From: a virus
Taxonomy: Duplodnaviria > Heunggongvirae > Uroviricota > Caudoviricetes
Reading direction: 5' to 3' (one strand)
Length of the DNA stretch: 40,734 nucleotides
Virus record (IMG/VR): IMGVR_UViG_2718217785_000001
Part shown: one piece after another, positions 1,874-18,057 of the stretch
How the letters are laid out: every line of letters starts with the position of its first letter
Numbering within the stretch: position 1 is the first letter of the stretch
The notes under the pieces: model-generated
What the model saw: the letters and a program-made list of their open reading frames with translations, nothing else
Database searches by the model: none
What the model was told of the DNA's origin: nothing
Position numbers and translations under genes: made by a program

Positions 1874-2070
1874 TACTGGCTGCGACATTTTTGAATAAAA
1901 GCGTCGACATTTCGGCGCTCATAACGAACTACTTTTGCACTGAAACGAATTGGTGCCAGGATAGCCCGATGACGATGCTTAATATTCCACTCACATAGCG
2001 TTTTCTGTGTAATACCTAACTTTTGGCATACTTCATCCGGGGTGAGTAAATCGTCGGGTTTCTCGCTCAT
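1870..2070 (-). CDS. Small HTH DNA-binding protein, excisionase-like or AlpA-like
   Basis: 66 aa, helix-turn-helix-like segment (LTPDEVCQKLGITQKTLCEW), immediately beside integrase. Confidence 0.55.
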   Translation of the reverse strand: MSEKPDDLLTPDEVCQKLGITQKTLCEWNIKHRHRAILAPIRFSAKVVRYERRNVDAFIQKCRSQY

Positions 2071-3461
2071 GCTATACCTCTCTTTTTCATGGCATCGAGC
2101 AGGATGTCCTGCACTGTTCGTTTTGAGTTGCGCCGCTCCATCACCATTTCGTCCATAGTGTCGGCAGCAATAATGTGGTGAATAAATACCGGACGATTGT
2201 GTCCGGCCTGTATCTGTCTGGTTGGGCCGATACGTTCAATAATTTGCTGATACTGCTCCAGGTCCCACCAATGTGAGAAAAATACCAGTATGTTTCCGCC
2301 GTCCTGCATGTTCAGACCGTGGCCCGCGCTGGCTGGGTGTGCAAAGAGAACAGGAATCTTTCCGGAATTCCAGTCACGTAGTGTCTGTGGATCCTGGTCG
2401 AGGTGACGACCGCGAGGAAATGCTTTAAGCAAGCGTTCAAGATCGTGTTTCCAGTGATAAGCAACCAGCACAGGTGCGCCAGCTGCTTCGGTCAGTATGC
2501 TGTCCAGCGCCTGTAGTTTGGTGTCATGCAGTTCTGACCAACTTCCGGTGTCATCTGTGTATACTGCGCCGCTGGCGATTTGCAGACACTTCAGTGTCTT
2601 TGCCGCGGCGTTTGGTGCTTCGATGCCTTCGCCATTCAGCTCGAGGAACATTTCCTTTTCCATTTCACGATACTGCTGACGGGCCTTCGGCGGCATATCC
2701 ACGCGGATTACGTTATGGATGGGGTCTTTGATATCGAACCAGTCGGTCGCATCCAGCGAGAGGGTCACATCGGCTAACGCTCGCTGTATTTCACCCTGTG
2801 AGTGAGCAAAAGGCTCCAGTTTGGTCCAGCTCTGCCCCGGAAACTGTATCGATTTGAACCAGCGTGAGGTAAACGCGCCGTAAGTGCGCCCGAGACGTTG
2901 CCCCAGGTCCACAAACCACGATTGTCCCCACAAATCTACCAGGCCGTTCGGTGCTGGCGTACCGGTGAGATTTATCCAGCGCCGGACATACTTGTGCGCC
3001 ACTTTGCCCAGCGCCGCCGCGCGCTTACCACCACCTCGCAGCCGGAAGGATTTTAGCCGGGTGCTTTCATCTGGAATGACAGTACCGAACGGCCATCGTT
3101 CTCCCAATTCCTCAACCAGCCAGACAAGGTTATCGTAGTTGATGGTGAACACGCTCGCGTTGTTGTTCGCCAACGCTGCAGAGCGCGCTTTGGCATTACC
3201 AACAATTGATTGTACCTCGATATTGCGCAAATGCCCCCACTTCAGTGCTTCATCCGGCCATGTGCTGGCAGCCACGCGCAGCGGCGCGAGAACCAGCGCA
3301 GGTTGTGTTTCTGCACCCGCCATGAAGAGGTCTTCCAGCGTAGTGAGTGTCGCTACGGTTTTACCCATTCCCATACCCGCCCAGATGTTGCCGCGCAGAA
3401 TGTTAGTTTGGTGATTGATTATGAGGTTTTGATAAATTCTGGGGTGGAATATGCTATTCAT
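2067..3461 (-). CDS. SNF2-family helicase/ATPase (phage replication module)
   Basis: Walker A GMGMGKT, DEST motif II, C-terminal helicase motif ERIGPTRQIQAG. Confidence 0.85.
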   Translation of the reverse strand: MNSIFHPRIYQNLIINHQTNILRGNIWAGMGMGKTVATLTTLEDLFMAGAETQPALVLAPLRVAASTWPDEALKWGHLRNIEVQSIVGNAKARSAALANNNASVFTINYDNLVWLVEELGERWPFGTVIPDESTRLKSFRLRGGGKRAAALGKVAHKYVRRWINLTGTPAPNGLVDLWGQSWFVDLGQRLGRTYGAFTSRWFKSIQFPGQSWTKLEPFAHSQGEIQRALADVTLSLDATDWFDIKDPIHNVIRVDMPPKARQQYREMEKEMFLELNGEGIEAPNAAAKTLKCLQIASGAVYTDDTGSWSELHDTKLQALDSILTEAAGAPVLVAYHWKHDLERLLKAFPRGRHLDQDPQTLRDWNSGKIPVLFAHPASAGHGLNMQDGGNILVFFSHWWDLEQYQQIIERIGPTRQIQAGHNRPVFIHHIIAADTMDEMVMERRNSKRTVQDILLDAMKKRGIA

Positions 3462-3534
3462 TAATACACCTATGGTAGAATATGGTCACTTCTCTCTCTC
3501 TATATATATATATATATAACTAACGGAGGCGGGT

Positions 3535-4332
3535 ATGCCCCTGGCGAAAATATTTACAAAGCAAGTTTCTTTATTAACTATGTTTTCAGCGTTAGCTTAT
3601 GCGATGGCATATTATTTTCAGAAAGGTGTCGCATCGTATTATGGCTATCCAGACCTTTTTATTAAAATAGACTTAAATACGCTATTGTATTCGGCTGTGT
3701 GGCTTTTGTTTTTTAGTTTTTTATTTCTCGGCGCCTTATATGCGGCGTTGATGTTTGATTTGAAAGGAAAATATTATGTTCCATTTATTGTATTTATAGT
3801 TGTTATGCTAATGGCTAATATTTGTATAATAGGATTTCATTGGCCTTTTGGTTATTTCTCCGAAACTTCTGTGATGAGTGTTCAGGATATTTTATTATTT
3901 GCTATGCTTTTGTTGAATTATCACAATGTGGTGTCTATGCCAATCCATAGTAAGAGACACGAACATCATATGGAGAGCATTAGAAAATTTGGGAGGCTTG
4001 CAGAGTATAAGAACGTATTTTATTATATCGATTTAAAAATCCTAAAGTCAGCTTTTCCTTTAGGGGTGATAACGTTGTTGATATTGAGCTATACATTCGG
4101 GAAGGTTACTGCATTTAAAAATAACGAATATTATATGGTAGATGGTAGTAATACTAAAGTGTTGCTCAATTCATTTGGTAGTGGTTTTGTTGTTGGTGAT
4201 TGTGAGTCAAATAGCGCAAAATTTGAATTTGTTAATGATTTAAAAGGGATGAGATTCACAATTATGTCCTCTAAAAAGGAAATAGCTAAATTAAAAGAGT
4301 GTTTCGAAATACGTGTTAAAAATACGGATTAA
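3535..4332 (+). CDS. Low-GC moron encoding integral membrane protein (about 4 N-terminal TM helices plus C-terminal soluble domain), unknown function
   Basis: 265 aa ORF, strongly AT-rich codon usage, opposite strand to flanking replication genes, RBS GGAGG at 3525-3529, hydrophobic N-terminal segments. Confidence 0.6.
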   Translation: MPLAKIFTKQVSLLTMFSALAYAMAYYFQKGVASYYGYPDLFIKIDLNTLLYSAVWLLFFSFLFLGALYAALMFDLKGKYYVPFIVFIVVMLMANICIIGFHWPFGYFSETSVMSVQDILLFAMLLLNYHNVVSMPIHSKRHEHHMESIRKFGRLAEYKNVFYYIDLKILKSAFPLGVITLLILSYTFGKVTAFKNNEYYMVDGSNTKVLLNSFGSGFVVGDCESNSAKFEFVNDLKGMRFTIMSSKKEIAKLKECFEIRVKNTD

Positions 4333-4344
4333 AGCATAAGTCTT

Positions 4345-4632
4345 TTATCCTTTATTGCGGCTTAAAATAATGGCTTCCAGATTTTTGCTATCCAGCACCA
4401 CTACGGTAAAGCCCAGCGCGCGCAACCGTCCGTGTTCGCGCAACTGGTCAGGCCGTGGTGGCTTGCCGGGGGATTTACATTCAACGAAAATGATACGACC
4501 GCCGGGTAGCAGAACAATGCGATCTGGTACCGAGCGGCGACCGGGGGATACGAACTTAAAGGCAACCCCGCCAGCCTTTTTTACTTCAGCGACGAGGTGC
4601 TTTTCGATTAGGTTTTCACGTTCATAGGCCAT
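4345..4632 (-). CDS. VRR-NUC domain nuclease
   Basis: 95 aa with PD-(D/E)xK-like D...ECK motif (PDRIVLL...IIFVECKSPG) typical of VRR-NUC. Confidence 0.75.
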   Translation of the reverse strand: MAYERENLIEKHLVAEVKKAGGVAFKFVSPGRRSVPDRIVLLPGGRIIFVECKSPGKPPRPDQLREHGRLRALGFTVVVLDSKNLEAIILSRNKG

Positions 4633-4826
4633 TAGCTTTCGCCTTCCTGCTTTTTGCGTTTCTTCATGCAGATAGCGCAGTTCTCAGGATGGTCATGCCA
4701 TTCATCAATCCTGATACCTATGAACATCCATTTTCCGCATAGTGATATGGCTTCCCCCGAATTAAAGAAATGTGCTTTTTTTGACAGAGCGGGGAACCCC
4801 CAACCCTTATTATCGATATTAGACAT
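4632..4826 (-). CDS. Small Cys/His-containing hypothetical protein
   Basis: 64 aa ORF tightly coupled to the VRR-NUC gene; contains C-x12-H-x-H-x3-C-x2-C pattern; no family recognised. Confidence 0.4.
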   Translation of the reverse strand: MSNIDNKGWGFPALSKKAHFFNSGEAISLCGKWMFIGIRIDEWHDHPENCAICMKKRKKQEGES

Positions 4827-4862
4827 CGTCCACCTCCTTACGCTTTTCGCGCATGTTCTGCA

Positions 4863-4997
4863 TCAGACAAAAATCAAACCGACGTTCGCTTTGGCCCAGA
4901 CCTGCATCGCCCGGTCGTACCCGCCGGACTGTTCAAGGTGCAAAGCCTCCCGCACAGTCCGGTAATAAAGCGGACTGTCCCGGTATTTAAATGACAT
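4863..4997 (-). CDS. Possible 44 aa small ORF (MSFKYRDSPLYYRTVREALHLEQSGGYDRAMQVWAKANVGLIFV), unknown function
   Basis: ATG-initiated ORF in otherwise noncoding gap, found by manual translation; below the ORF-track length cutoff. Confidence 0.25.
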   Translation of the reverse strand: MSFKYRDSPLYYRTVREALHLEQSGGYDRAMQVWAKANVGLIFV

Positions 4998-5011
4998 AGG
5001 GTTTTTATTCC

Positions 5012-5038
5012 CAAATAAAAAACCCCGCGATGCAGGGT
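5012..5038 (-). terminator. Intrinsic terminator downstream of the TIR-like gene
   Basis: Minus-strand hairpin CCCTGC-ATC-GCGGGG followed by TTTTTTATTT. Confidence 0.5.
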
Positions 5039-5060
5039 TGTAATCAACAATAAGGGGTAA

Positions 5061-5822
5061 TTACGAGGAAGCGTTAGCTATTTGAGCTTGTGTAAATTCG
5101 AAACCAGAATTTTGTAACCGTTGCACTAGACGAGGAACTGTTTCACGTACATGGTCGTTGAAATTCAGATACAAAATCCCGTTAGCATCAGAAGGCTGTT
5201 CTAGGTGCTGTTTCTGAAGGATTGCTACATTGCTGCGCCCTAAGGACGAAAGAAGCATACCCATCTCGAGTACAACGTTCTGTCTTGCGCGGGGTTGGAT
5301 TTCTGCTTCACCGGCGCGCTTTGAGTATCCCATATCATCAGGTGTCAAAAGAACAATCCCGAAACGGGTAGCAGTTTGTCCTTGCCCAATTTCACGTTCA
5401 AGCTCTTCAATAATGGTGAGTCCAGTCCCTCCCGTATTCTGCAAAATGAAATGGTCTGGTAATCCAAGTTTATGAAGGATTAGCTCAAGTTGCTCCTTTG
5501 CAGTATGGTCATGGCCGTGAACAATGAATATCTTTTTGGGGAGCTCAGATGGCTGTTCTACGGCTAGTGGTGTTGCCGTGGGCGGCGTTCCTAAATGGGT
5601 CATTATTGCAGTTTCAACATTGGGACGTTCTTGAGGGTTACCTTGAAACTGAATGGTCCGGGTGGTGTAAAGGTTAACAATTACGCCATTCGTTAAACGA
5701 TAGCAGTCACAAGTCTCACGCTGTTCGTGGGAAAAATTGGTGAACCCACACTCCCCCAAAAAGTCAGGAAAAGATTCTCTCGGGTATGGATAGGTGATCG
5801 GCATTTCAGTTAGTTCCTGCAT
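5061..5822 (-). CDS. Protein with C-terminal TIR-like (COG4271-type) nucleotide-binding domain and unassigned N-terminal domain; candidate defence or abortive-infection effector
   Basis: 253 aa; C-terminal motifs KIFIVHGHD, VLLTPDD, RARQNVVLEMG resemble TIR-like/SLOG-type domains from memory; GC lower than flanking pol gene; own terminator. Confidence 0.5.
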   Translation of the reverse strand: MQELTEMPITYPYPRESFPDFLGECGFTNFSHEQRETCDCYRLTNGVIVNLYTTRTIQFQGNPQERPNVETAIMTHLGTPPTATPLAVEQPSELPKKIFIVHGHDHTAKEQLELILHKLGLPDHFILQNTGGTGLTIIEELEREIGQGQTATRFGIVLLTPDDMGYSKRAGEAEIQPRARQNVVLEMGMLLSSLGRSNVAILQKQHLEQPSDANGILYLNFNDHVRETVPRLVQRLQNSGFEFTQAQIANASS

Positions 5823-5886
5823 AAGTATTGTTCCTTTAATTTACTCGAATTCAGCATGTCGCCATAGCTCGATAAGGTGAGTTATA

Positions 5887-7950
5887 TCAATCTTTTTTGT
5901 AGTGGTACGCCTCAAAACCGCCAGCGTTCAGTGGGATATCGGGCGCCCATTCGGGGTCAGTGGAGAGAAGCGCGGAAAGCGCTTTATCGTTGAAATCTTC
6001 TGTGTCAGGTGCTTCGGTGATCACCTCGTCGTGTACCGTCAGCACAATGCTGTAACCGGCATCTTCGATAAGCGGCATGTTTCCGGCCAGAATGTCGCGG
6101 GCGGCCGCCTGGGTGATGTTCTCCACCAGCTTTCCGCCGTAGGTTTTGAGTCGTTGCCATTTACGCGAATAAGAGTTAACCCCCATGTAGGTGATATTCC
6201 CTTTTTCGATAACCGGAGACGGGTAGCATACAGCGCGTCCTGATGGTAGCTGTATGCGCAGCCACGCGCCATCGCGGCGGATTTTAAGATAACCGCAATA
6301 CAATGTTTTTTGCGGTGTGGCGATTGCAGTGCGGACGGTGCGCTCCAGTTCGTACCAGAAATCACAGGTCGCGGGATGCGCCCGGCGCCAGAGACGTTTA
6401 AGTGAGTCGCAGGCGATAAATACCCGTTCAGAAAGCCCGTAGGTTGACTTGCGTTTAACCGATTCGTCGTACCAGCTTTTCGCCTCGTGGATAACATCGC
6501 GGGGAATGTTTGGTAGTGCGGCGTTCGCCAGCTCGTCGAGATCGAGACCGTAAACCAGTGCAAAAGTGATGAAGGCCGACACACCACCACCATAACCCAG
6601 ACCGAGTTCCATGACTTTACCGATCTGACGCATGTGTTTATCAACATCATCTGGTGCAATATCGAAAGCTTTTGCATACGCCAGTTTATATAAGTCCGGA
6701 CCCGTTCCGGCGTCGTACTCTCTGAATGCATTCAGTTTCCATTCTTCTCCCGCCAGCCATGCCAGCATACGGCCTTCAATGTTCGACAAGTCACTTACCA
6801 CCAGCTTTTTGCCTGTTGGCGCGATAATGCAGCCACGTAACGCTGAACTGGTTAGTTCCATGATATTGTCAAACAGCAGGTCTGCACATCCGGCTTTCAG
6901 TGCTTCGATGCCTTCGTCTATTTGTTCCTGTTTTAGTGAAGGGCGGGGAAGGTTCTGGGGCTGGAATAGCCGTCCGGCCCAACGACCGGTACGTGACGCC
7001 CCGCAGAACTGTAGCGTACCGCGTAAGCGCCCGTCGTGGCTTACGCCTTTCATCAGTGCCTTGTATTTACTGGTGCTGGTAGTACTGGCCTGCAGGCGGA
7101 TAGCCAGCAGTTCTTTCACGGCAGATGGTAAATCGGGGTCGGCAATACGACGTTCCAGAGTACTGCGTTGCATGTCTGGTAGCTCCACACCGTAGGATTC
7201 AACAATGTGCTTAATCAACGCGTCTCGTTGTGTGGCTGCCTGCACTTCGCCATCAGTCATTTCCTGTGTACGCTTTGCCAGGCGCTTTTGTTCCTGGTCT
7301 ACCGCGTCGATCGCAGCGCGTGCGAGTTCCACGTCCATGCAGACGCCCCGGTCATTGATCTGCTGATCACGATGCCAGAGCGTCAGTTCTGTCCCCTGAT
7401 AATTCCACTTCGGCAGACGTTTATAGACTTCGCGCATTGCCTCGATATCCAGTCCGGCGTAAGCAACAAAGCGCCGCCATTCTTCCGGGTGGGTTTTGCT
7501 GGTGGCACGGCGCAGTTTGCTGTTTTTCGGGCGGGGCTTACAGAACAGCTGGATCAGCGCTTTACCTTCTTTGTCCTTCGCTTTGTCTTGCGGGACGCCT
7601 AGTACTTCGCAGAGTTCCCCCAGAGACCCCGGGAGACCGTGCGCCAGCGCCTGCACCATTGTGTCGCGCCAACGTTCGACTGGCGGTGCCAGGCGCGGCA
7701 TTGCATAACGCAGGACGGTGCGGTCGAAGTGAGAGTTATGGAAATAAAGCAGGGTTTCAGGGTCTGCGATTGCTTCGTATAAGCCGTGTGGAATACCACC
7801 ACCGGCAGTGATATCCCACACGTTTACGGGCCCGTCGTTGATAGCCCATGCGAACAGCATCACTTCAACGCCTTCGGCATACGCATGGGTACCGTTCGTA
7901 ATAGGGATTTCGCAATAGGTTTCTAGGTCACCCCATAGTATATTGGACAT
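5887..7950 (-). CDS. Family A DNA polymerase with 3'-5' exonuclease domain
   Basis: 687 aa; exo motif GDLETY, pol motif [17 protein letters not shown], motif [17 protein letters not shown], motif C VHDEV. Confidence 0.9.
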
Positions 7951-8006
7951 AAAATAACCTTGTGTGATATATGGTTATGTAGGCGTAAATAAACAAGGAG
8001 ACGGCG

Positions 8007-8276
8007 GTGTTTAGCTTTGGTATCGGAATACTTTCATTGATAGGTATTATTGCTTTCCCCATTCTTTATATTTTAGGGAGAATAGTTCGGGCTGGTGGCG
8101 CATGGCTCGAACGTGAAGAAGGTCCTAAGGATCGTGTTCTTCCCAAAATTATAATTTTTGCGCTTATTGGGTTCTTTCTTGGGTGTTTGGCTCAGCCTGT
8201 ATGGGACAGCATTTCGGCATGTAGAGACTATGGCAATCCAATAGGGAAATGTCTTTTTAAATTCAATGAATTTTAA
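8007..8276 (+). CDS. Low-GC moron encoding small membrane protein (2 TM), GTG start
   Basis: 89 aa, GTG start with RBS AAGGAG at 7995-8000, opposite strand to replication genes, AT-rich, hydrophobic segments. Confidence 0.5.
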   Translation: MFSFGIGILSLIGIIAFPILYILGRIVRAGGAWLEREEGPKDRVLPKIIIFALIGFFLGCLAQPVWDSISACRDYGNPIGKCLFKFNEF

Positions 8277-8343
8277 TTTTTAGTATTGCGGTAGGCTGGT
8301 TTGGATAACTATTTTCTTAAGCCAGCCTTTGTTATAAGAAATA

Positions 8344-8982
8344 TTAAGCATCTACCCCTTCGTCAGAAGGGAGGCCGATCATTTCGTTGAGAGTTTCGCG
8401 TCGTATAGCTGGCGGAAGCGGAGCAGATGGTGCATCGGCTGGCAGAAGTTCTTTAGCTTCAGGCCACTCTTCCAGCAGGCGCTTAACTGTGCGCACTTTA
8501 CTGAGTGCAGCGCTGACATTCTGTCGAATGTCTGACTCATCGCTCTGTATCTGCTCATAAAGTGCATCAAACCCGTAAAACTCTGTAACTAGAGGGTCAT
8601 TTGCCAGAAGGGTAAATTCCCCCGGCGCGATTTTGTGAATATGGTCTGGTGACCCTGATTCATATCCTCGATAGTTACCGTTGAAATAGACGGTAACCCG
8701 AGAACCTGCCAGATTCAGACACATGTAACACTCTTTCCTGATAATATTATTGGCGGTTTTTAATGCTTCGGGGAATTTTGATACCAGTGTTTCTATTTTT
8801 TTTATAATTTTTAATATTTCAGCTTCTTTCTCTACGCCCCCGATAGCTGCAAGCCGAACACGTTCGGCCCATTCAACACGAGCAGCTCGTAGTGCTGATT
8901 TACGTTTGGGGATACCCGCTTTCTCAAGTGCGTTATTGATGATTTGAGTTTTAAGGTGATTAGTTAATACGGGCTGTGACAT
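8344..8982 (-). CDS. Hypothetical phage protein (replication module); ORF could start 15 nt upstream at 8997
   Basis: ORF with RBS GAGGGAAAG ahead of internal ATG (MSQPVL); no family recognised. Confidence 0.55.
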   Translation of the reverse strand: MSQPVLTNHLKTQIINNALEKAGIPKRKSALRAARVEWAERVRLAAIGGVEKEAEILKIIKKIETLVSKFPEALKTANNIIRKECYMCLNLAGSRVTVYFNGNYRGYESGSPDHIHKIAPGEFTLLANDPLVTEFYGFDALYEQIQSDESDIRQNVSAALSKVRTVKRLLEEWPEAKELLPADAPSAPLPPAIRRETLNEMIGLPSDEGVDA

Positions 8983-9034
8983 TATTCTTTCCCTCATGAG
9001 ATACCCCCAGCACGTAGCTGGGGGATGAATATTT

Positions 9035-9583
9035 TTAAATTAGTGCTTCAGCATCAGCACCTTCGCTGATATCGTCGAAATCGTCAGCGCTTGCCACTCC
9101 GCCGCCAGCGAATGCATCGCCGTCTCGCAGGAACTGGACTCCGCCGAGTGAGGCATTAATGCGTTTACCGAAATTATTGTCCTGTGCCCAGATATCGATA
9201 ACGGCGTTTACATAGCACCCTGCATAGGGACGTCCGTCAGCCTGAATAAGTGGCGAACGATCGCGATCAAGAACAGCTGGGCGCGCTTTGTTAGCAGCAT
9301 TCAGGAAGAAATTACCGGGGAAGCCTTCATACTCTGCTTTTTCATCACCATCATGCAGGCACAGATTGAGTTTTTTCTCCAGCTGGTTATAAATGGGCTC
9401 CCACTTCTCTCCCCATTTTTCCTTCGCTACCTGCTTCATAGCTTTACGGATTTCTTCCAGTTGTGGGTGTTTGGGTGACATTAAAAATACTGCGGAGAAA
9501 CGTGGATCGCCTTCGCCGTTTACAGTTTTAGCTTCAAACAGAGACGGGAAGGCCAGACGAACATTGTTCAGCTTCAGTTTCAT
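9035..9583 (-). CDS. DUF2815-like phage protein (putative ssDNA-binding)
   Basis: 182 aa, N-terminal MKLKLNNVRLAFP and acidic C-terminal tail typical of DUF2815 proteins that accompany Pol A in this module type. Confidence 0.65.
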   Translation of the reverse strand: MKLKLNNVRLAFPSLFEAKTVNGEGDPRFSAVFLMSPKHPQLEEIRKAMKQVAKEKWGEKWEPIYNQLEKKLNLCLHDGDEKAEYEGFPGNFFLNAANKARPAVLDRDRSPLIQADGRPYAGCYVNAVIDIWAQDNNFGKRINASLGGVQFLRDGDAFAGGGVASADDFDDISEGADAEALI

Positions 9584-9598
9584 GGGTATTTCCTTAAA

Positions 9599-10900
9599 TC
9601 AGATGAGGTCTGCGGTTAGCGTATCGTCGGATACGTCGTCGAAATCATTTATAGGGTTGATATTGAGTGCGGGGCGTGGGTCTGACTCGGGAACGACGGT
9701 GGGTTTACCATCAGCTCGTGTTATCAGTGCCTCGACTTTTGACCAACGGCGCGGACTGGCCTTTTTGATAAGTTTTTCGGCTTTTGTGGGGCTAATAAGT
9801 TTAAAGTCGAATACTTCTTCAGTTTTGTACCTGAACTGGTCCTTCAGAAGTGCGCGAGCTGCCTCTTCATCACTCCAGGCCCGGTTACCTTGTTTTCCTG
9901 TTACCAGTTTAAACCCCGGTACCGGATGTCCGGCATTGAGTTCATTGTGAACCCGGTCTCGTACTGCCTTTAGCCAGGATTCAATAAAGTCGGCCTGGCT
10001 ATAGATCTCCGCAAGCTGCTCAATGGTTAACAGAGGTACACGTGCGCTGGCATTGGTGATTATTTCGCTGACAGGCTTTGTCAGATCTTCAAAATCGCTG
10101 GCCGCTGTTTGTAAATGCTGCATTTTCTGGGCAGTGCAAATAGCTTTTGCTTTACAGAAGCGGCACTGTTTTTCTCCAGGTATGAAGTTTTCCAGCGGTA
10201 GTGTCTCAATGCCTTCGCATTCAGCAATATTGAGAACAAGGATCGCACTGGTTGCGGCCTCCTGTGCCCGTTCACCGAAAGACTGAAGTTCCTGTACGGT
10301 TAACGACCATTCTGAAACGTGGTTGAGCCTTGGCTGGTGAATAAATAATCTTACAGTCTCAAAGTCATACAGCATGCTGAATTGTTCGAGTGCACCCAGG
10401 GCATACAGTTGTAGTTGCTCATTTTGTTCTGCATCAATGCGGACGCCTTTGCCATATTTCAGGTCGTGGATTTGTAATTCGTTACCAGCGATGATTATGC
10501 CGTCGGCAGTTCCGAAAGATTCTTCCACACCCGTTATATGTGAGAAATCAACACGTTGTTCAACCAATAGTTCATTATTCTGTGCAAGAGTCCAGACCGT
10601 ATCAACATACCGGCCAACGGCTTCGACCATTTCATCATCCACCTGTGGGCCAGATGTATCATCAGGATTTTCGCGAAGGGGGTATGAGCCGAGAAACATA
10701 GAAACATTGCATCCGGCGTAGTGTTCCGGGTGGCTTTGCCTGTTTCGTAGAACTTTTTCAGCAAGCGCGTGCGCTGCAGTGCCCTCGATTGCAAAAGTTG
10801 TTTCTTTATCCGGTTGTGTGGCCTCCAGCGCCAGACTTCCTGGGCAGCGCATCCATCGATGCGCTGATGATGGAGAAAGTTGTGCGTGAACGTCTGGCAT
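9599..10900 (-). CDS. DUF2800 / Cas4-like PD-(D/E)xK nuclease with Fe-S Cys cluster
   Basis: 433 aa; N-terminal Cys (RWMRCPGS), D-x-K motif [10 protein letters not shown]-terminal C-x2-C-x5-C ([13 protein letters not shown]). Confidence 0.75.
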
Positions 10901-10902
10901 GA

Positions 10903-11805
10903 TTAACCCTCCAGTGCTTTTTCAGCCAGGGTGATTACTTCAGCGAGATTTTCATCCGTTACTTCACCAAGTTTCCTGGCTCCCTGTTTTTCCAGAATTG
11001 CAATAGCTTCTGCCCGGTAGCCCCCTTTTGCTAACTGGAGGATCAACCCTTCAGCTTGTTTGCGTAGTGCCGCGAAATCAATTGTATGGTCATCTTTGGC
11101 GTCATGATTCTGGCTGGAATTTGCTGCGTCTCTGCGTGCAAATTCTTCCTGCAGCTGAAGGTACTCAACACGGTTGATCTCGATATGGCCTTTTTTAAGC
11201 ATCTCGTTCAACTTGCGTAAGGTGTGGAGTTCACTGGCTGCTGTGCCGGATACATTTTTGACGTAAAACGGCCCCGTGCGTTCTCCATCTTTGTCACTGG
11301 CCTTTTTCGGCTTAACTTCATCACGCCCATCTGCAGGTGCATCAAGTAGCTGCTCGGCAAAAGCGCGTCGCTCGCCGATGGTTGGCAGGTCGTCCCAGAA
11401 CTTAAGAATGTTACGGGACAGGTCCAGGAGAGCAGGTTTAAGCAGCGCCCTGGCTCGTTTGACGCCCTGCAATGCGCTGTCGAGAGCATCAATCTGAACT
11501 ACTCGTTTATCGCCTTCAGCATCACGGTAGGCAACAGCACGTTGCAGCATATCTTCTGTGATAGGGGTGGCTACCGGGTAGAAACCAGCCAGTGCGATAA
11601 CGTCGCTGAACTCCAGATCATCCAGTGTCATTGCCGCTGACATATTTTCAGTTTCAGTTGCTGTATCCCGACATTCCTGCACTCGTGAAATTGTGTCAGG
11701 ATGCATAACAATACCTGATGCCATTGTGCGGATAAGACGTTCAAGCAGCGCATTATGTTGTGCCAGAAGTTGATTATTAAGTTCTAGACTGGTTTCTAAA
11801 CTCAT
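10903..11805 (-). CDS. Hypothetical phage protein
   Basis: 300 aa ORF translationally coupled to neighbours in the leftward early operon. Confidence 0.55.
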
Positions 11806-12598: not shown

Positions 12599-13291
12599 TC
12601 AGAGCAGAACGGAGTACCAAAATACTTGGCCTATAATCCTGATTTTATTAGCCTCTTGATTAAAATACTCTTCGTCTGCGTATTCATCCCTATTGAAAGA
12701 GCGTATCCGGAGTCCGCTTGGGAGACGGTACAATAGTTTGACACGAAGTAATCCGTCTTGGTCTATAGCGTACATTTGACCATCTTTTACACCTGTTTTT
12801 GATGTATCTATGCCGACGACAGCGCCATCCGGTAATACCGGTTCCATGCTGTTGCCGTGGATGCTGACACAAGCCGCACAATTTACGTCAACACCTGCTT
12901 TGCGCAACGTTGAACGGGCGAATCTTAACTTACATCCCATTCGATCTATATCAACATAAGTACCATTACCGGCAGACAGTTCAATTTCCTGATAGAACGG
13001 TATTTCCACTTCATCATCCTCTAATGGTGTTGATGAGTCCCATACAGAAAACCCCCCTTCAACTTGTGCATTAGAATGTATTTCTTTGGTATCGCTTGTT
13101 TTGCCTGAAAGTAGCCACTCTGGAGAAACGTTCAATGCTTCGGCCAGATTTATAAGATTTTTCCCGTTAGGTGTGGTGTTTCCGGATTCCCATTGTGAAA
13201 TCGTGGCTTTAGTTAGACCAATACGTTTAGCAAGCGCATCCTGCGTTAGGTGGACATTGCGACGAGCCTCGCGAATACGATCATTAATCAT
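12599..13291 (-). CDS. cI: CI-like phage repressor (N-terminal XRE HTH, C-terminal S24 LexA-like peptidase)
   Basis: HTH LTQDALAKRIGLTKATISQWESG; S24 region with catalytic Ser context GNSMEP and Lys context LRVKLL. Confidence 0.85.
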   Translation of the reverse strand: MINDRIREARRNVHLTQDALAKRIGLTKATISQWESGNTTPNGKNLINLAEALNVSPEWLLSGKTSDTKEIHSNAQVEGGFSVWDSSTPLEDDEVEIPFYQEIELSAGNGTYVDIDRMGCKLRFARSTLRKAGVDVNCAACVSIHGNSMEPVLPDGAVVGIDTSKTGVKDGQMYAIDQDGLLRVKLLYRLPSGLRIRSFNRDEYADEEYFNQEANKIRIIGQVFWYSVLL

Positions 13292-13404: not shown

Positions 13405-13587
13405 ATGAAAAAAGCAGAAGCAATTGAGCTTGCAGGAAGTAAAGCGAAACTAGCGAGACTATTGAAGGTTTCCAAAGGCGCCGTATCTCAATGGGGGGAG
13501 GAAATCCCAGAGCTAAGAGCTCTTCAACTTGAAAAGATTTTGGAGCAAAAAAATGTAGTCAAACAAAAAGGCGTAACCCATGTCTGA
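13405..13587 (+). CDS. Cro/CII-like HTH regulator
   Basis: 60 aa, HTH (LAGSKAKLARLLKVSKGAVSQW), divergent from repressor. Confidence 0.65.
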   Translation: MKKAEAIELAGSKAKLARLLKVSKGAVSQWGEEIPELRALQLEKILEQKNVVKQKGVTHV

Positions 13588-15841
13588 TAACAAACCATGG
13601 GGAGCTACGCCCGATGAGTGGTTCCACTTCGATCTGGTGTTGGGGATGACAGACAGGCTTTTACCTGTGGTGTCCAATCCCTGTGCAGAACTGTCGCCTA
13701 ATAGCAAGCTGTCTCATAATTTCGGCAAAACCCCCAGTCGCTACAATGGCCAACGTAAGGTTGTTGGTATCCCCGACTGGGCTAACTATGTTGTTACGGA
13801 AAACGATTTTGCCCGGTGGTCGAACGAACCCGATTACGGTATTTGCGTTCGTACTGGCGACGGGGTGGTGGCTCTGGACTGCGATATCAATGACGCCGGG
13901 ATGCAGGAGATCGTACGCAATATTATCCTATCATGCCTGGGGGAACTTCCGCCACGTCGCTGGCGGGCTGACAGTCATAAATGCCTGTACCTGATTGCTG
14001 TTGATGGCGACTACCGTAAACGTGGTCACCGCCTGGAAGGCGAAAACAAACAAATAGAGCTGCTCGCTAAGGGCCAGCAGTTTGTGGCTTGTGGTACCCA
14101 TCCGGCAGGCGAACGTATTCAGTGGGACTGCGGTTTGCCCGGCGAACCTCTGAAAATTACATCTGAACAGCTCGAAAGCCTGTGGCAGCGTCTGGCGGAT
14201 AACTTACCCGTGAAAGACAGCTATACCGCAGGTGCAGGACGTCAGCGTGACCTTTCCTGTGTTGATCCTTCCGCGACAGATGATGTCGCCGACTGGCTTG
14301 ACGCGAACGGGTGGACTCTGTCAGTCAGCTCTGATGGTTCCCGCAATCTGAAACCGTTTCGGGATGAGTCAGAATACAGCAACGGTTGCAGCGAAACATC
14401 CATTAAGTATTTCCCAAAAGGGACGGGGGGATTTGAACAGGGACATTTTAAAAGCATGCACAACACCGATGCGGGGCTTACTGATGCCGACTGGCTGGAA
14501 GGCTACGGCTATACGCAATCCCTGTTCGAAGATCTCACGGTGGTTGAAGATGGCGATAAGCCTGAATTTACCGATATTAATACAGATATGACAGCTCATT
14601 TTCTGGAACGCTTTATCTACGTTATCGAGGGTGACCAGGTATGTGATCTTAGCCGACCGCCATATCAGTGCATGATGGATATGAAGTCGTTCAAAAACCT
14701 GATGGCGCCTTACCAGTTCCCGCCAGAAGGGAAAGGGCAACCAACTCCCGCAACCAAACGGTGGATAGAGCATCGGCATAAGAAGATTGCTGAGACGACA
14801 GGCTATAAGCCCGGTGCGGGACGTATTATCGAGCGTTTCGACGGGCGGTTTGAGATAAACGAATTTTATATGCCTGAGCATCCACGTACAGCGGATACAA
14901 GTAAGGTGTCCACGTTCCTTAATCATATGGCGTATCTGGTACCTGATGCCTGGCAGCGCGAGTTTTTCATCGCCCGTCTGGGGTGGATGGTTCAGCGTCC
15001 GGAGCGTCGATGCCCGATTTCTATTCTGCATGTGGCTACCGCACATGGTACGGGCAGAGGATGGGTCAGTCAGTTAATGGAGCGCGTGCTTGGCCCGTGG
15101 AACTGTGCTCGTACTCGCATGAAGATCCTGTGCGATAACCAGTTCCATGACTATCTGTACAATACGCTTCTATGCACCATTGACGAGGTGCGCGAAAATG
15201 ATAAGCGGTATGAGGTGAACGATAAGATCCGTGACGTGCTGACAGAACCACGGTTTGAAGTGAACCGCAAATATGGCAGCAAAAAAACGATGGATATATA
15301 CACCGGCTTTCTGTTCTACACCAACCACTTTGATGCGCTGGCGCTGCCAGAGGAAGACCGACGTATAGCTGTGCTGGGGGGCCCTGACTTCGCCGCAACT
15401 GAAGAGCATTACGCCAGCCTGTACGGTGCGCTAAGCGACAGCGACTTTATCGCCCAGGTGTACTGGTATCTAATGGGCGTTGACCTGTCTCGCTTTAACT
15501 GGCAGCGCGCCCCCGAGACGAAAGAACGCCTTCTGATGATTGAAAGCAATAAGAGCGATGTGGAGGCTGCTCTTATTGAAATCCTGGATAATCCGCCTGT
15601 GCCAGCAATGACTTATCAACAAATTGTTAACGCAATACTGGCAGAAGCAGGAATGGATGTAGAAATTAACCAGAAGCATATTACTCGCATTTTGAAAGAA
15701 AGAACAAAACGTGAAGCAGTGAAACTAAAAGTGGACGGCATGACTGTTCGCATGTGGATGCTTGCAAAAAATTGCGACTTCAATAATGAGGAATTGCGTG
15801 AAATATATAAAACATGCGAAATTTTGCAATCTGGATTGTAA
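13580..15841 (+). CDS. DNA primase/helicase-like replication protein (prim-pol-like N-terminus, D5-like C-terminal region)
   Basis: 753 aa; acidic motif VVALDCDINDAG in N-terminal part; large C-terminal region of D5/P4-alpha type by position and size. Confidence 0.6.
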   Translation: MSDNKPWGATPDEWFHFDLVLGMTDRLLPVVSNPCAELSPNSKLSHNFGKTPSRYNGQRKVVGIPDWANYVVTENDFARWSNEPDYGICVRTGDGVVALDCDINDAGMQEIVRNIILSCLGELPPRRWRADSHKCLYLIAVDGDYRKRGHRLEGENKQIELLAKGQQFVACGTHPAGERIQWDCGLPGEPLKITSEQLESLWQRLADNLPVKDSYTAGAGRQRDLSCVDPSATDDVADWLDANGWTLSVSSDGSRNLKPFRDESEYSNGCSETSIKYFPKGTGGFEQGHFKSMHNTDAGLTDADWLEGYGYTQSLFEDLTVVEDGDKPEFTDINTDMTAHFLERFIYVIEGDQVCDLSRPPYQCMMDMKSFKNLMAPYQFPPEGKGQPTPATKRWIEHRHKKIAETTGYKPGAGRIIERFDGRFEINEFYMPEHPRTADTSKVSTFLNHMAYLVPDAWQREFFIARLGWMVQRPERRCPISILHVATAHGTGRGWVSQLMERVLGPWNCARTRMKILCDNQFHDYLYNTLLCTIDEVRENDKRYEVNDKIRDVLTEPRFEVNRKYGSKKTMDIYTGFLFYTNHFDALALPEEDRRIAVLGGPDFAATEEHYASLYGALSDSDFIAQVYWYLMGVDLSRFNWQRAPETKERLLMIESNKSDVEAALIEILDNPPVPAMTYQQIVNAILAEAGMDVEINQKHITRILKERTKREAVKLKVDGMTVRMWMLAKNCDFNNEELREIYKTCEILQSGL

Positions 15842-16140
15842 AAAGGTGGCAGCAAGGTGGCAGATAAACGACTAACTGCCACCTTAAAAAGTGCATATAA
15901 ATCAATTTGATACTGTAAAAAGGTGGCAGGTGGCAGTAGAATTTAAATTATATACGCGAGAACTTATATTTTATGTATTATGCGATCTCTTATATATATA
16001 TATATAACTAAAACTATCTGCCACCTGCCACCAAAATAGCCCGGAGCCTTACGTGGCGTGCGTTTCAGGAGGTGGCAGATAGCTATTTAACTGCCACCTA
16101 ACTGCCACCCGGAAATTAACTTGAAAAAATTAGCAAATAA
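15842..16140. repeat. Iteron array: 10 copies of GGTGGCAG (5 per strand) flanking an AT-rich (TA)8 tract; candidate replication origin or activator-binding site
   Basis: Motif counted directly at about 15845, 15857, 15880, 15922, 15929, 16017, 16024, 16068, 16090, 16100. Confidence 0.7.
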
Positions 16141-16158
16141 CTAAATGAGGATACGACG

Positions 16159-16449
16159 ATGTCAAAGATATTCCGCCAATGTATGCCTTACGGTATCCGC
16201 AAAACAGCTGAGGGGGCTTGGGAAGCATTCAACAGAGACTACCAGCCCTTAGGGGAGGCTTTTTTCTTCAAAAGAGCACTAACGCAGGCCACTCGAGATG
16301 TGTTGGCGCCACCGCCGGTAACTCAGCGCGACGACTGTGTATGGCTGTATAGCGATATCGAGCACCCGATGCACTCTGAGGCTTACTGGAAAGCGTATTG
16401 CCAGCGGCTTAAACATCTTTCTAACCTCAAAATGAAAGATGAACGGTAA
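16159..16449 (+). CDS. Hypothetical protein
   Basis: 96 aa ORF with upstream RBS GAGG. Confidence 0.5.
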   Translation: MSKIFRQCMPYGIRKTAEGAWEAFNRDYQPLGEAFFFKRALTQATRDVLAPPPVTQRDDCVWLYSDIEHPMHSEAYWKAYCQRLKHLSNLKMKDER

Positions 16450-16474
16450 GTAGCAAAACGTAGAGGTCAGAGCT

Positions 16475-16897
16475 ATGCGTAATATTCAACAGGTTTTAGA
16501 GCGCTGGGGGGGCTGGGCAGCGAGTGAAGGTGGTAGCGTCTACTTTCCTCCTGTTGCAGCCGGGTTTAAGAATCTGCTACCCGCGACGCAGTCTGGAAGG
16601 CTGAAATGCAGTGACAATGACGGTCTTATCATCAACTCCGCTATGAGCTGCCTGAAGAAAAAAGATCCGTATCTGTGCACGCTCCTTGAGTGGCATTACG
16701 TCCAGGCCATGCCCGTGCGGGCGATGGGTGAGAAGCTCGGCGTATCTCACACCCACGTTCTGAAGAGGCTTCAGGCGGCAGAGGGATTTATTGACGGTTG
16801 CTTAGCCATGCTGGATGTGGTGCTCGAAATGGATCAGTCGGTTCAGTCAAAGCCTCAGGCTATCAGGACTTTGCGTAGGAGCTGCTCGGCGGCATAA
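16475..16897 (+). CDS. Q: Late-gene antiterminator Q (DLP12 QuuD-like family)
   Basis: N-terminal VLERWGGWAA...AAGFK and Cys-containing core resemble recalled QuuD-type Q proteins; sits upstream of lysis genes. Confidence 0.75.
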   Translation: MRNIQQVLERWGGWAASEGGSVYFPPVAAGFKNLLPATQSGRLKCSDNDGLIINSAMSCLKKKDPYLCTLLEWHYVQAMPVRAMGEKLGVSHTHVLKRLQAAEGFIDGCLAMLDVVLEMDQSVQSKPQAIRTLRRSCSAA

Positions 16898-17614: not shown

Positions 17615-17715
17615 GTATTCAGGGCCCACCGAAGGACGGCTCATAACCCAATCCTGCGGGCGTATACGCAGGGCCCGCCTTTCAACAACACCCCGTAATG
17701 GCGGAGGTGGGAAGT

Positions 17716-18057
17716 ATGAAAATGCACAATGCTCCTCATTCCTGGCCTGACTTACTGGAACTCTTACAAAGTTGGTGGCGTGGAGATACGCCGTTGGGCG
17801 CAGTGGTTATGTCAATTGTTATGGCTGGCTTGCGCATTGCCTATTTTGGCGGTGGCGGCGGCTGGAAACGAAAAACGCTTGAGATTTTGCTCTGTGGTGC
17901 TCTGACGCTGACCTTTGCATCCGCTCTTGAGTATGTTGGATGGCCTAAATCTCTTTCTGTTGCCATTGGTGGTGGTGTTGGGCTGATCGGTGTCGATGCT
18001 ATTCGTGGGGCTGCAATGCGAGTAATCGGTAACAAGTTTGGTGGCTCTAAGGAGTAA
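17716..18057 (+). CDS. Holin (class I, dual-start MKM motif); ORF could begin at 17698
   Basis: Hydrophobic TM segments, RBS GGAGGTGGG before ATG-AAA-ATG, immediately upstream of endolysin. Confidence 0.7.
   Translation: MKMHNAPHSWPDLLELLQSWWRGDTPLGAVVMSIVMAGLRIAYFGGGGGWKRKTLEILLCGALTLTFASALEYVGWPKSLSVAIGGGVGLIGVDAIRGAAMRVIGNKFGGSKE

Follow-up and report, generated by a model that had tools for sequence, protein, structure and literature searches.

A mirror-symmetric array of ten octamers 3' of a Prim-Pol/SF3-helicase gene as the probable replication origin of an Escherichia coli prophage

Computational evidence makes it highly probable that the intergenic array at 15842–16158 of an Escherichia coli prophage is its replication origin, served by the primase/helicase encoded immediately upstream. 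The stretch of DNA analysed (the window; 40,734 nucleotides, IMG/VR record IMGVR_UViG_2718217785_000001) is a prophage of E. coli strain C11, whose chromosome it matches with 100% identity, and the IMG/VR contig UViG_2718217713_000001 (L048) corresponds to it. The assignment is supported by the co-variation of ten 8-mers with the wing of a predicted winged helix across 19 loci, by the apparent exchange of wing codons and array as a single segment of ∼430 bp, by an A+T-rich core that is the least stable duplex in the window, and by a layout like that of origins determined by experiment for related self-loading helicases (PMC9371898, PMC6092414, PMC4234260).

The octamer GGTGGCAG has 15 exact matches on the two strands of the whole 40.7-kb window, where 100 dinucleotide-preserving shuffles of the window give an expectation of 1.66 ± 1.36 (largest count 6; 0/100 shuffles reach 15). 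Ten of the 15 copies fall within 265 bp (15845–16109), five on each strand; the remaining five (24395, 26409, 26599, 36179 and 37134) are lone, scattered copies in G+C-rich coding DNA, and the array is ∼300-fold denser in the 8-mer than the remainder of the window. Enumeration of the motif thus reproduced the ten copies in about 260 bp, five per strand, of the original prediction, along with its tandem doublets (15845–15863, 15922–15936 and 16018–16032) and its placement downstream of the primase gene, the first site beginning 4 nt past the TAA stop codon (15839–15841) of the 753-aa ORF at 13580–15841. A similar density of the 8-mer was found nowhere else in the window, and neither the window nor, for its cognate 8-mer, phage vB_EcoM-689R2 contains a second cluster, only scattered single copies being present.

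The array is built from two mirror-image halves. On the left, an outer triplet is formed by iteron 1 (15845–15852, plus strand), iteron 2 (15856–15863, plus; 11 bp from iteron 1) and the inverted iteron 3 (15876–15883, minus; 20 bp from iteron 2), and is followed by a 38-nt spacer (15884–15921) and an inner doublet in which iteron 4 (15922–15929, plus) and iteron 5 (15929–15936, plus) are set in a 7-bp register and have one base in common, iteron 5 facing the core. On the right, the inner doublet consists of iterons 6 (16018–16025, minus) and 7 (16025–16032, minus), and a second 38-nt spacer (16033–16070) separates it from the outer triplet of iterons 8 (16071–16078, plus), 9 (16091–16098, minus) and 10 (16102–16109, minus). 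All five pairs of sites (15845/16109, 15856/16098, 15876/16078, 15922/16032 and 15929/16025) are centred on 15977, so that the right half mirrors the left: the order of orientations is + + − / + + on the left and, mirrored, − − / + − − on the right, and the centre-to-centre steps are 11, 20, 46 and 7 bp, then 89 bp over the core, then 7, 46, 20 and 11 bp. Given the spacings of 11 and 20 bp, successive outer sites within each half are separated by approximately one and two helical turns. The spacers have the same length and contrasting base compositions: the left has 18% G+C with a partly conserved AAATCAAT block, the right 55% G+C with a conserved GCCTTA block.

Between the halves lies an 81-nt core (15937–16017; 81% A+T), which is the proposed unwinding element. 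By nearest-neighbour energies the least stable 60-step duplex of the whole window, ranked first, is 15959–16019, with a ΔG of −60.5 kcal/mol against a window mean of −85.7 (sd 6.5). Across the relatives described below, the A+T-richness of the core and its blocks TATATACGCGAGA (15949–15961 in the window) and TATATAGAACTAAAA are conserved and the spacers diverge freely; in several lineages the core carries an inverted repeat of its own, CTATATACG...CGTATATAG. The (TA)8 tract that had been noticed between the sites was located at 15991–16006, off-centre in the array. It is a length-polymorphic microsatellite and, because it varies from three to eight units among close relatives, (TA)8 as such is not the conserved feature. 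The role of unwinding element, suggested earlier for the (TA)8 tract, is here proposed for the A+T-rich core as a whole. The length of the TA run also shifts the distance between the half-origins by up to ∼8 bp. No DnaA boxes were found, and of IHF sites none is convincing, a single match with one mismatch being present that is not conserved in relatives.

The gene preceding the array (13580–15841, plus strand) was assigned as that of the initiator from Pfam, a PDB sequence match, an AF2 model and Foldseek. Its 753-aa product comprises a Prim-Pol (AEP) primase domain (∼aa 1–216), a small middle domain (∼aa 230–310), a D5/NrS-1-like SF3 helicase (∼aa 337–640) and a predicted C-terminal winged helix (aa 648–753; codons 15521–15838, plus strand). 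Pfam identifies Prim-Pol PF09250 (3.1e-7, aa 75–185) and PF19263 DUF5906 (1e-13, aa 488–595), and the helicase region shows sequence homology to the NrS-1/DUF5906 primase-helicases, matching the C-terminal region of the NrS-1 phage polymerase (6K9C/6K9E) with E-values of 5.6e-8 for the single sequence and 3.9e-18 for a profile. Foldseek matches of the full-length AF2 model (pLDDT 78) include NrS-1 (1.6e-13), MPXV E5, vaccinia D5, ASFV PrimPol, SaPI5 PriRep (7OLA, 1.3e-5), PriRep1–dsDNA (7PDS) and the Prim-Pol domain of pRN1 ORF904 (1RNI, 3.8e-5). The C-terminal 114 residues have the predicted fold H-b-H-H-b-b-H (pLDDT 80, pTM 0.70), consistent with a winged helix, with predicted elements H3 at aa 698–709, b2 at aa 714–718 and b3 at aa 721–727.

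Within the middle of the protein (aa ∼255–300; window 14340–14480), the Salmonella, Serratia and other homologues have a zinc-binding-like Cys/His pattern, CPFEDGHS...HFKCLHASCAH, where the E. coli lineage has a different sequence, KPFRDESEYSNGCSE...HFKSMHNTDAG, which is without most of the Cys/His residues.

Relatives of the module were collected from complete E. coli genomes, four vB_EcoM phage records, a scan of one genome per species and contigs encoding homologues from protein searches, which gave 472 proteins at E ≤ 1e-20. It is present in 45 of 5,426 complete E. coli genomes, and also in prophages or metagenomic contigs of Salmonella, Klebsiella, Serratia, Xenorhabdus and Arsenophonus. 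At 19 loci from at least eight genera, with hosts including Escherichia, Salmonella, Klebsiella, Enterobacter, Serratia, Izhakiella, Arsenophonus and uncultured bacteria or metagenomes, the ten sites have identical positions, orientations and spacings, their offsets from the stop codon being 4+, 15+, 35−, 81+ and 88+, then the core, then ∼174−, 181−, 228+, 248− and 259−. More distant Xenorhabdus and Arsenophonus loci have a reduced version of this layout. The 8-mer itself differs among loci and, where it does, all ten sites change together. Six types were found, all of the form GGT-NN-C-N-G: GGTGGCAG, GGTGACGG (type B), GGTGACAG, GGTGTCAG, GGTAACAG (type C) and GGTAGCAG.

A wider pattern scan of viral contigs, specifying the inner inverted doublets with their variable dinucleotides left free, returned 29 stretches, in most of which all four free dinucleotides are identical (AA, GG, GT, GA or TA). 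Many of the matches sit 3' of homologous or distantly related helicase genes, and several of these, next to helicase genes with 19–25% identity, have GGTTACAG or GGTAACAG doublets or triplets around a core of similar length. Since doublets flank cores 3' of such distant helicases, the design of the array seems to extend beyond the close family. At individual IMG/VR loci, the neighbouring helicase genes of L030, L035, L040 and L041 are 19–25% identical to the 753-aa gene and that of L052 has no detectable similarity; all five loci carry inverted doublets or triplets of GGTTACAG, GGTAACAG or GGTGACAG in a 7-bp register around a core of ∼70–90 bp, and the helicase C-termini have a similar ...K.(D/N/H)G....(R/K).W motif. 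Seven further matches (L029, L032, L034, L042, L044, L054 and L055) have no recognisable adjoining helicase and may be unrelated 7-mer tandem arrays.

The type of iteron follows a short segment of the initiator. Ten E. coli copies of the 753-aa protein are 98–99% identical over residues 1–702 and have a differing block within residues 703–746, and across the 19 loci the iteron type follows residues 711–727 only. This segment (the EAVKLKVDGMTVRMW region; codons 15710–15760, plus strand) is the only part of the protein that co-varies with the iterons. The wing EAVKLKVDGMTVRMW occurs with iteron GGTGGCAG, EPVRVKIDGFVYRIW with GGTGACGG, EPVRVKVEGIAQRFW with GGTGACAG, EPVRVKIDG(C/F/N)T(N/Q)RFW with GGTGTCAG, (Q/P)(P/A)T(D/E/K)LVK..G.(G/A)YRFW with GGTAACAG, and PTVSVKIDGVPQRFW with GGTAGCAG. 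In 51 protein pairs whose helicases are at least 97% identical and whose iteron types differ, the wings are 39–76% identical, and in ten pairs with backbones below 85% identity and the same iteron type they are 67–88% identical; judged from these comparisons, the association of wing and iteron holds irrespective of the remaining protein sequence. The predicted recognition helix also varies (RILKER vs KLLREK), but not in step with the iteron type. Because residues 714–718 and 721–727 form the predicted wing hairpin, the specificity residues would be located in the wing, and it is through co-variation that a cognate specificity between initiator and iterons is indicated. In lambdoid phages, the DNA-binding specificity of the initiator and the iterons also co-vary.

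Wing codons and array appear to move together. In 60-nt bins, the window is 97–100% identical to L004 and L006 over 13580–15679 and 57–92% identical over 15680–16159, and identity to L004 returns to 100% over 16160–16459. Since identity drops across 15680–16159, it is likely that wing codons and array are exchanged as one specificity segment (15680–16110, from the identity bins), which in E. coli is swapped inside DNA that is otherwise 98–100% identical.

We propose that the C-terminal winged helix of the 753-aa Prim-Pol/SF3-helicase binds each of the 8-mers, with the wing hairpin at aa 711–727 reading the variable bases 4, 5 and 7 of GGT-NN-C-N-G and the invariant residues reading the constant bases. 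The two mirror-image half-origins, of five sites each, would recruit the protein to either side of the core, probably as two oppositely oriented hexamers; the number of sites per half-origin is five, compared with six subunits per hexamer, a mismatch that counts against the proposal. The hexamers would then melt the A+T-rich core and the Prim-Pol domain would prime, after which the phage's own family-A polymerase, SSB and accessory helicase may take over. Initiation may also depend on transcription from the early rightward promoter. The segment comprising wing and array would set the specificity of the replicon and be exchanged by recombination.

An extension of this proposal, which we put forward tentatively and regard as somewhat less probable than its opposite, is that the segment is a modular unit of replicon identity, in which three to six residue changes in the hairpin re-target the initiator to another GGT-NN-C-N-G, the ten sites are co-replaced and the unit is shuffled among Enterobacterales prophages. 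If so, exchange of the module might keep co-resident prophages and satellites from cross-talk, incompatibility or hijacking; there would be a simple residue-to-base code for the winged-helix wing and a ready set of orthogonal origins; and some Stx2b prophages, including both of those examined here, would amplify their toxin genes via a non-lambda origin.

The array can be regarded as a member of an established class of origins because the organisation of SaPI, PICI, pRN1 and P4 elements is comparable. SaPI origins lie directly 3' of rep and contain 6–12 iterons, divided equally between the two flanks of an A+T-rich region and oppositely directed; their reader is the C-terminal winged helix of a hexameric helicase that loads itself, and two such hexamers are thought to load, one per side (PMC9371898). 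The organisation of E. coli PICIs is as in SaPIs, and a pri-rep-ori fragment of EcCICFT073, cloned in pKO3-blue, supported plasmid maintenance (PMC6092414). As in SaPI1, SaPIbov1, SaPI5 (PriRep5) and EcCICFT073, the origin proposed here is directly 3' of the initiator gene, in all 19 loci, with 5 + 5 mirrored sites around a core of 81% A+T; the initiator likewise combines an SF3 helicase (from Pfam, PDB sequence and Foldseek matches) with a predicted C-terminal winged helix, and PriRep5 is also fused to a primase. However, the element here is a full-size temperate phage with a lambda-like gene order rather than a satellite and carries its own polymerase and SSB, its ten 8-mer iterons are rigidly arranged, with nucleotide-exact conservation of the layout from genus to genus, and its primase is a Prim-Pol of the NrS-1/DUF5906 type. 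Sequence and profile searches gave no sequence-level match of the 753-aa protein to SaPI Rep.

A similar arrangement is known for pRN1, where ORF904 (Prim-Pol/SF3/winged-helix) depends on a dyad element directly downstream of its own gene; the same authors noted comparable proteins and elements in phages, BIP-1 among them (PMC4234260). The order of domains in ORF904 and the Bordetella BIP-1-type proteins (Prim-Pol, SF3 helicase, C-terminal winged helix) is the same as here, as is the dyad-symmetric cis element just 3' of the gene (PMC4234260). The pRN1 element, however, is described as a ∼100-nt stem-loop without iterons and with no binding motifs identified, whereas the dyad here consists of ten copies of one 8-mer over 265 bp with a core of ∼81 bp. 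The hairpin potential of the region here is strong (z −8.5).

With lambda O and ori-lambda, the module has in common its slot in the early rightward operon between cro and Q and the adjoining of iterons and an A+T-rich region; it differs in having no O or P homologue and in an origin that is intergenic, outside the initiator gene. As the initiator here carries both helicase and primase domains, delivery of DnaB by a P-like loader would not be needed. SV40 large T antigen and papillomavirus E1 are SF3 initiators as well, acting as double hexamers at inverted short sites around a melting region, but their origin-binding domain has a different fold and is N-terminal to the helicase, and as proteins of eukaryotic viruses they offer an analogy only.

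The comparison with satellite phage P4 raises the alternative that survives best, though we consider it improbable: that the array is a crr-like, cis-acting replication enhancer which binds the initiator while synthesis begins at a separate origin. In P4 alpha, too, a primase, an SF3 helicase and a C-terminal origin-binding domain are combined in a single polypeptide, and the iterons are octamers of either orientation; a set of ten, crr, begins 46 bp past the 3' end of the alpha gene. The P4 record annotates these ten octamers within 300 bp, with the origin 4.5 kb away and six further octamers at that distant origin; crr itself plays an auxiliary part in cis, the main origin being elsewhere. 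Because crr adjoins alpha and is nevertheless auxiliary, position next to the gene is by itself no proof that synthesis starts there. The absence of a second 8-mer cluster from the window and from vB_EcoM-689R2, together with the enclosure by the array of the most meltable DNA of the window, nevertheless makes a crr-like auxiliary site unlikely. The array is also dyad-symmetric, like the SaPI and PICI origins, whereas crr is a tandem direct duplication of 120 bp, and P4 needs two separated cis sites (ori and crr) where a single dyad-symmetric cluster is present here. The P4 primase is of the Toprim type (PMC4234260), in contrast to the Prim-Pol domain of the 753-aa protein. Homology of that protein to P4 alpha was considered and rejected (hhalign profile comparison, probability 0.1%, E 0.49). 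The P4 type-1 octamer on the alpha-gene strand (L028, 4291–4590), GGTGAACA, resembles GGTGACAG, and GGTGA is common to several of the iteron types described here; this likeness could be coincidence or reflect a shared mode of reading DNA.

The position of the array in the early region allows a different reading. The array is preceded by genes for an S24-peptidase CI-type repressor (12599–13291, minus strand) and Cro (13405–13587, plus) and by the initiator gene, which alone fills the slot between cro and Q, where Pfam finds no lambda O/P-type genes; it is followed on the plus strand by a 96-aa ORF without known domains (ORF96, 16159–16449), the antiterminator Q (16475–16897) and a holin (17698–18057). 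Since no terminator is predicted between the initiator gene and Q, read-through transcription must cross ten potential protein-binding sites, and the array, lying between an early replication gene and Q of the same strand, might mainly serve transcriptional control, with the bound protein acting as a roadblock or operator ahead of ORF96 and Q that times the late genes. We regard this as less probable still. In two Stx2b prophages, L002 and L003, the CI, Cro, ORF96 and Q proteins bear identical accession numbers, and the arrays are of type A and type B, respectively; being identical despite different 8-mers, these four proteins are excluded as readers of the sites, and the alternative offered in the original prediction, a binding array for a regulator of Q expression, is not supported. 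The array is moreover kept where the downstream genes have been replaced (L006, L005 and L018), there is no significant promoter-like signal (3 sites vs 1.9 expected), and a roadblock needs neither an A+T-rich core nor mirror symmetry. Terminator-like sites are likewise close to expectation (1 vs 0.9), the one site lying inside the gene on the opposite strand, and there is no T-run terminator in the array. With no terminator before Q, binding of the initiator at an origin may still have a secondary effect on read-through or regulation.

Least probable of all, to the point of being hardly tenable, is that the region works through nucleic-acid structure, as a cruciform or stem-loop origin, an RNA hairpin or a terminator, with the repeats as mere stem halves. 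As single-stranded DNA, 15842–16112 does reach a folding energy of −58.4 kcal/mol, where shuffles give −26.7 ± 3.7 (z −8.5), Rfam returns sub-threshold matches to hairpin-type miRNA-precursor models and the sRNA InvR, and the pRN1 origin has been described as a ∼100-nt stem-loop 3' of orf904 (PMC4234260), but one and the same 8-mer at all five arm pairs is not required for pairing, the direct repeats change jointly, the identity of the 8-mer follows a segment of protein, the inter-site spacers are not complementary (18% vs 55% G+C), the T-run of a terminator is missing and Rfam yields no family above threshold. Within the origin reading, extrusion of a cruciform after binding could be part of the mechanism.

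A separate conserved stretch, AATTAACTTG...GCAAATAAC, lies directly after the last iteron (window 16110–16140, with equivalents in L005, L008 and L009). The window has TTGAAAAAATTAGCAA here; in several relatives the stretch contains either TTGCAAATATTTGCAA, which is a perfect palindrome, or a hairpin, TTGCAGAAAACTGCAA being one example. Possible roles ahead of the small ORF and Q are those of an operator, a promoter element or an RNA hairpin.

Origins in which iterons surround an A+T-rich region downstream of the gene for a self-loading helicase are already established for SaPIs, PICIs and P4. A literature search, which was not exhaustive, returned no description of such an origin in the NrS-1-like/DUF5906 family or in this phage group, and the present analysis assigns a candidate origin and a putative rule of initiator–DNA recognition to an uncharacterised replication module. 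Its main value lies in the natural set of six initiator–origin specificities and in the link to Stx2b prophages. As the six variants occur in near-identical backbones, they constitute a ready-made experiment, from which the reading of DNA by a winged-helix wing and the assembly of an SF3 primase-helicase on a dyad origin could be learned.

Both Stx2b prophages carry the module in place of lambda O/P, at 3143–3456 of L002 (STEC435) and 3091–3403 of L003 (CFIAFB20190157), and have stxA2b/stxB2b downstream of Q. The toxin yield of Stx phages depends on phage replication after induction, and Stx2b phages with this module would use an initiator unlike lambda O/P.

Besides an integrase, the leftward arm of the window encodes, over 2067–11805 on the minus strand, an SNF2-type helicase, a TIR-domain protein, the family-A DNA polymerase PolA (5887–7950), an Nmad5 protein (8344–8997), an Enc34-type ssDNA-binding protein (SSB, 9035–9583) and a DUF2800/PD-(D/E)XK nuclease (9599–10900). 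With polymerase, SSB, helicase and nuclease encoded there, the prophage carries much of its own replication machinery, and the arm forms a self-contained replication and recombination module. The TIR-domain protein, of the CAP12/Pycsar-effector type (PF10137, 2.9e-31; 5061–5822, minus strand), adjoins the polymerase gene and has an annotated counterpart in phage vB_EcoM-689R2; as cargo of the prophage it may serve defence or counter-defence.

Domains of the initiator have also been shuffled among its homologues. P0046 has the same Prim-Pol N-terminus (97% identity over 44% of the query) joined to a VapE-type helicase (PF05272), and P0030 and P0041 have an unrelated N-terminal domain with the same helicase and winged helix; in L025, which encodes P0030, the ten-site array is still present.
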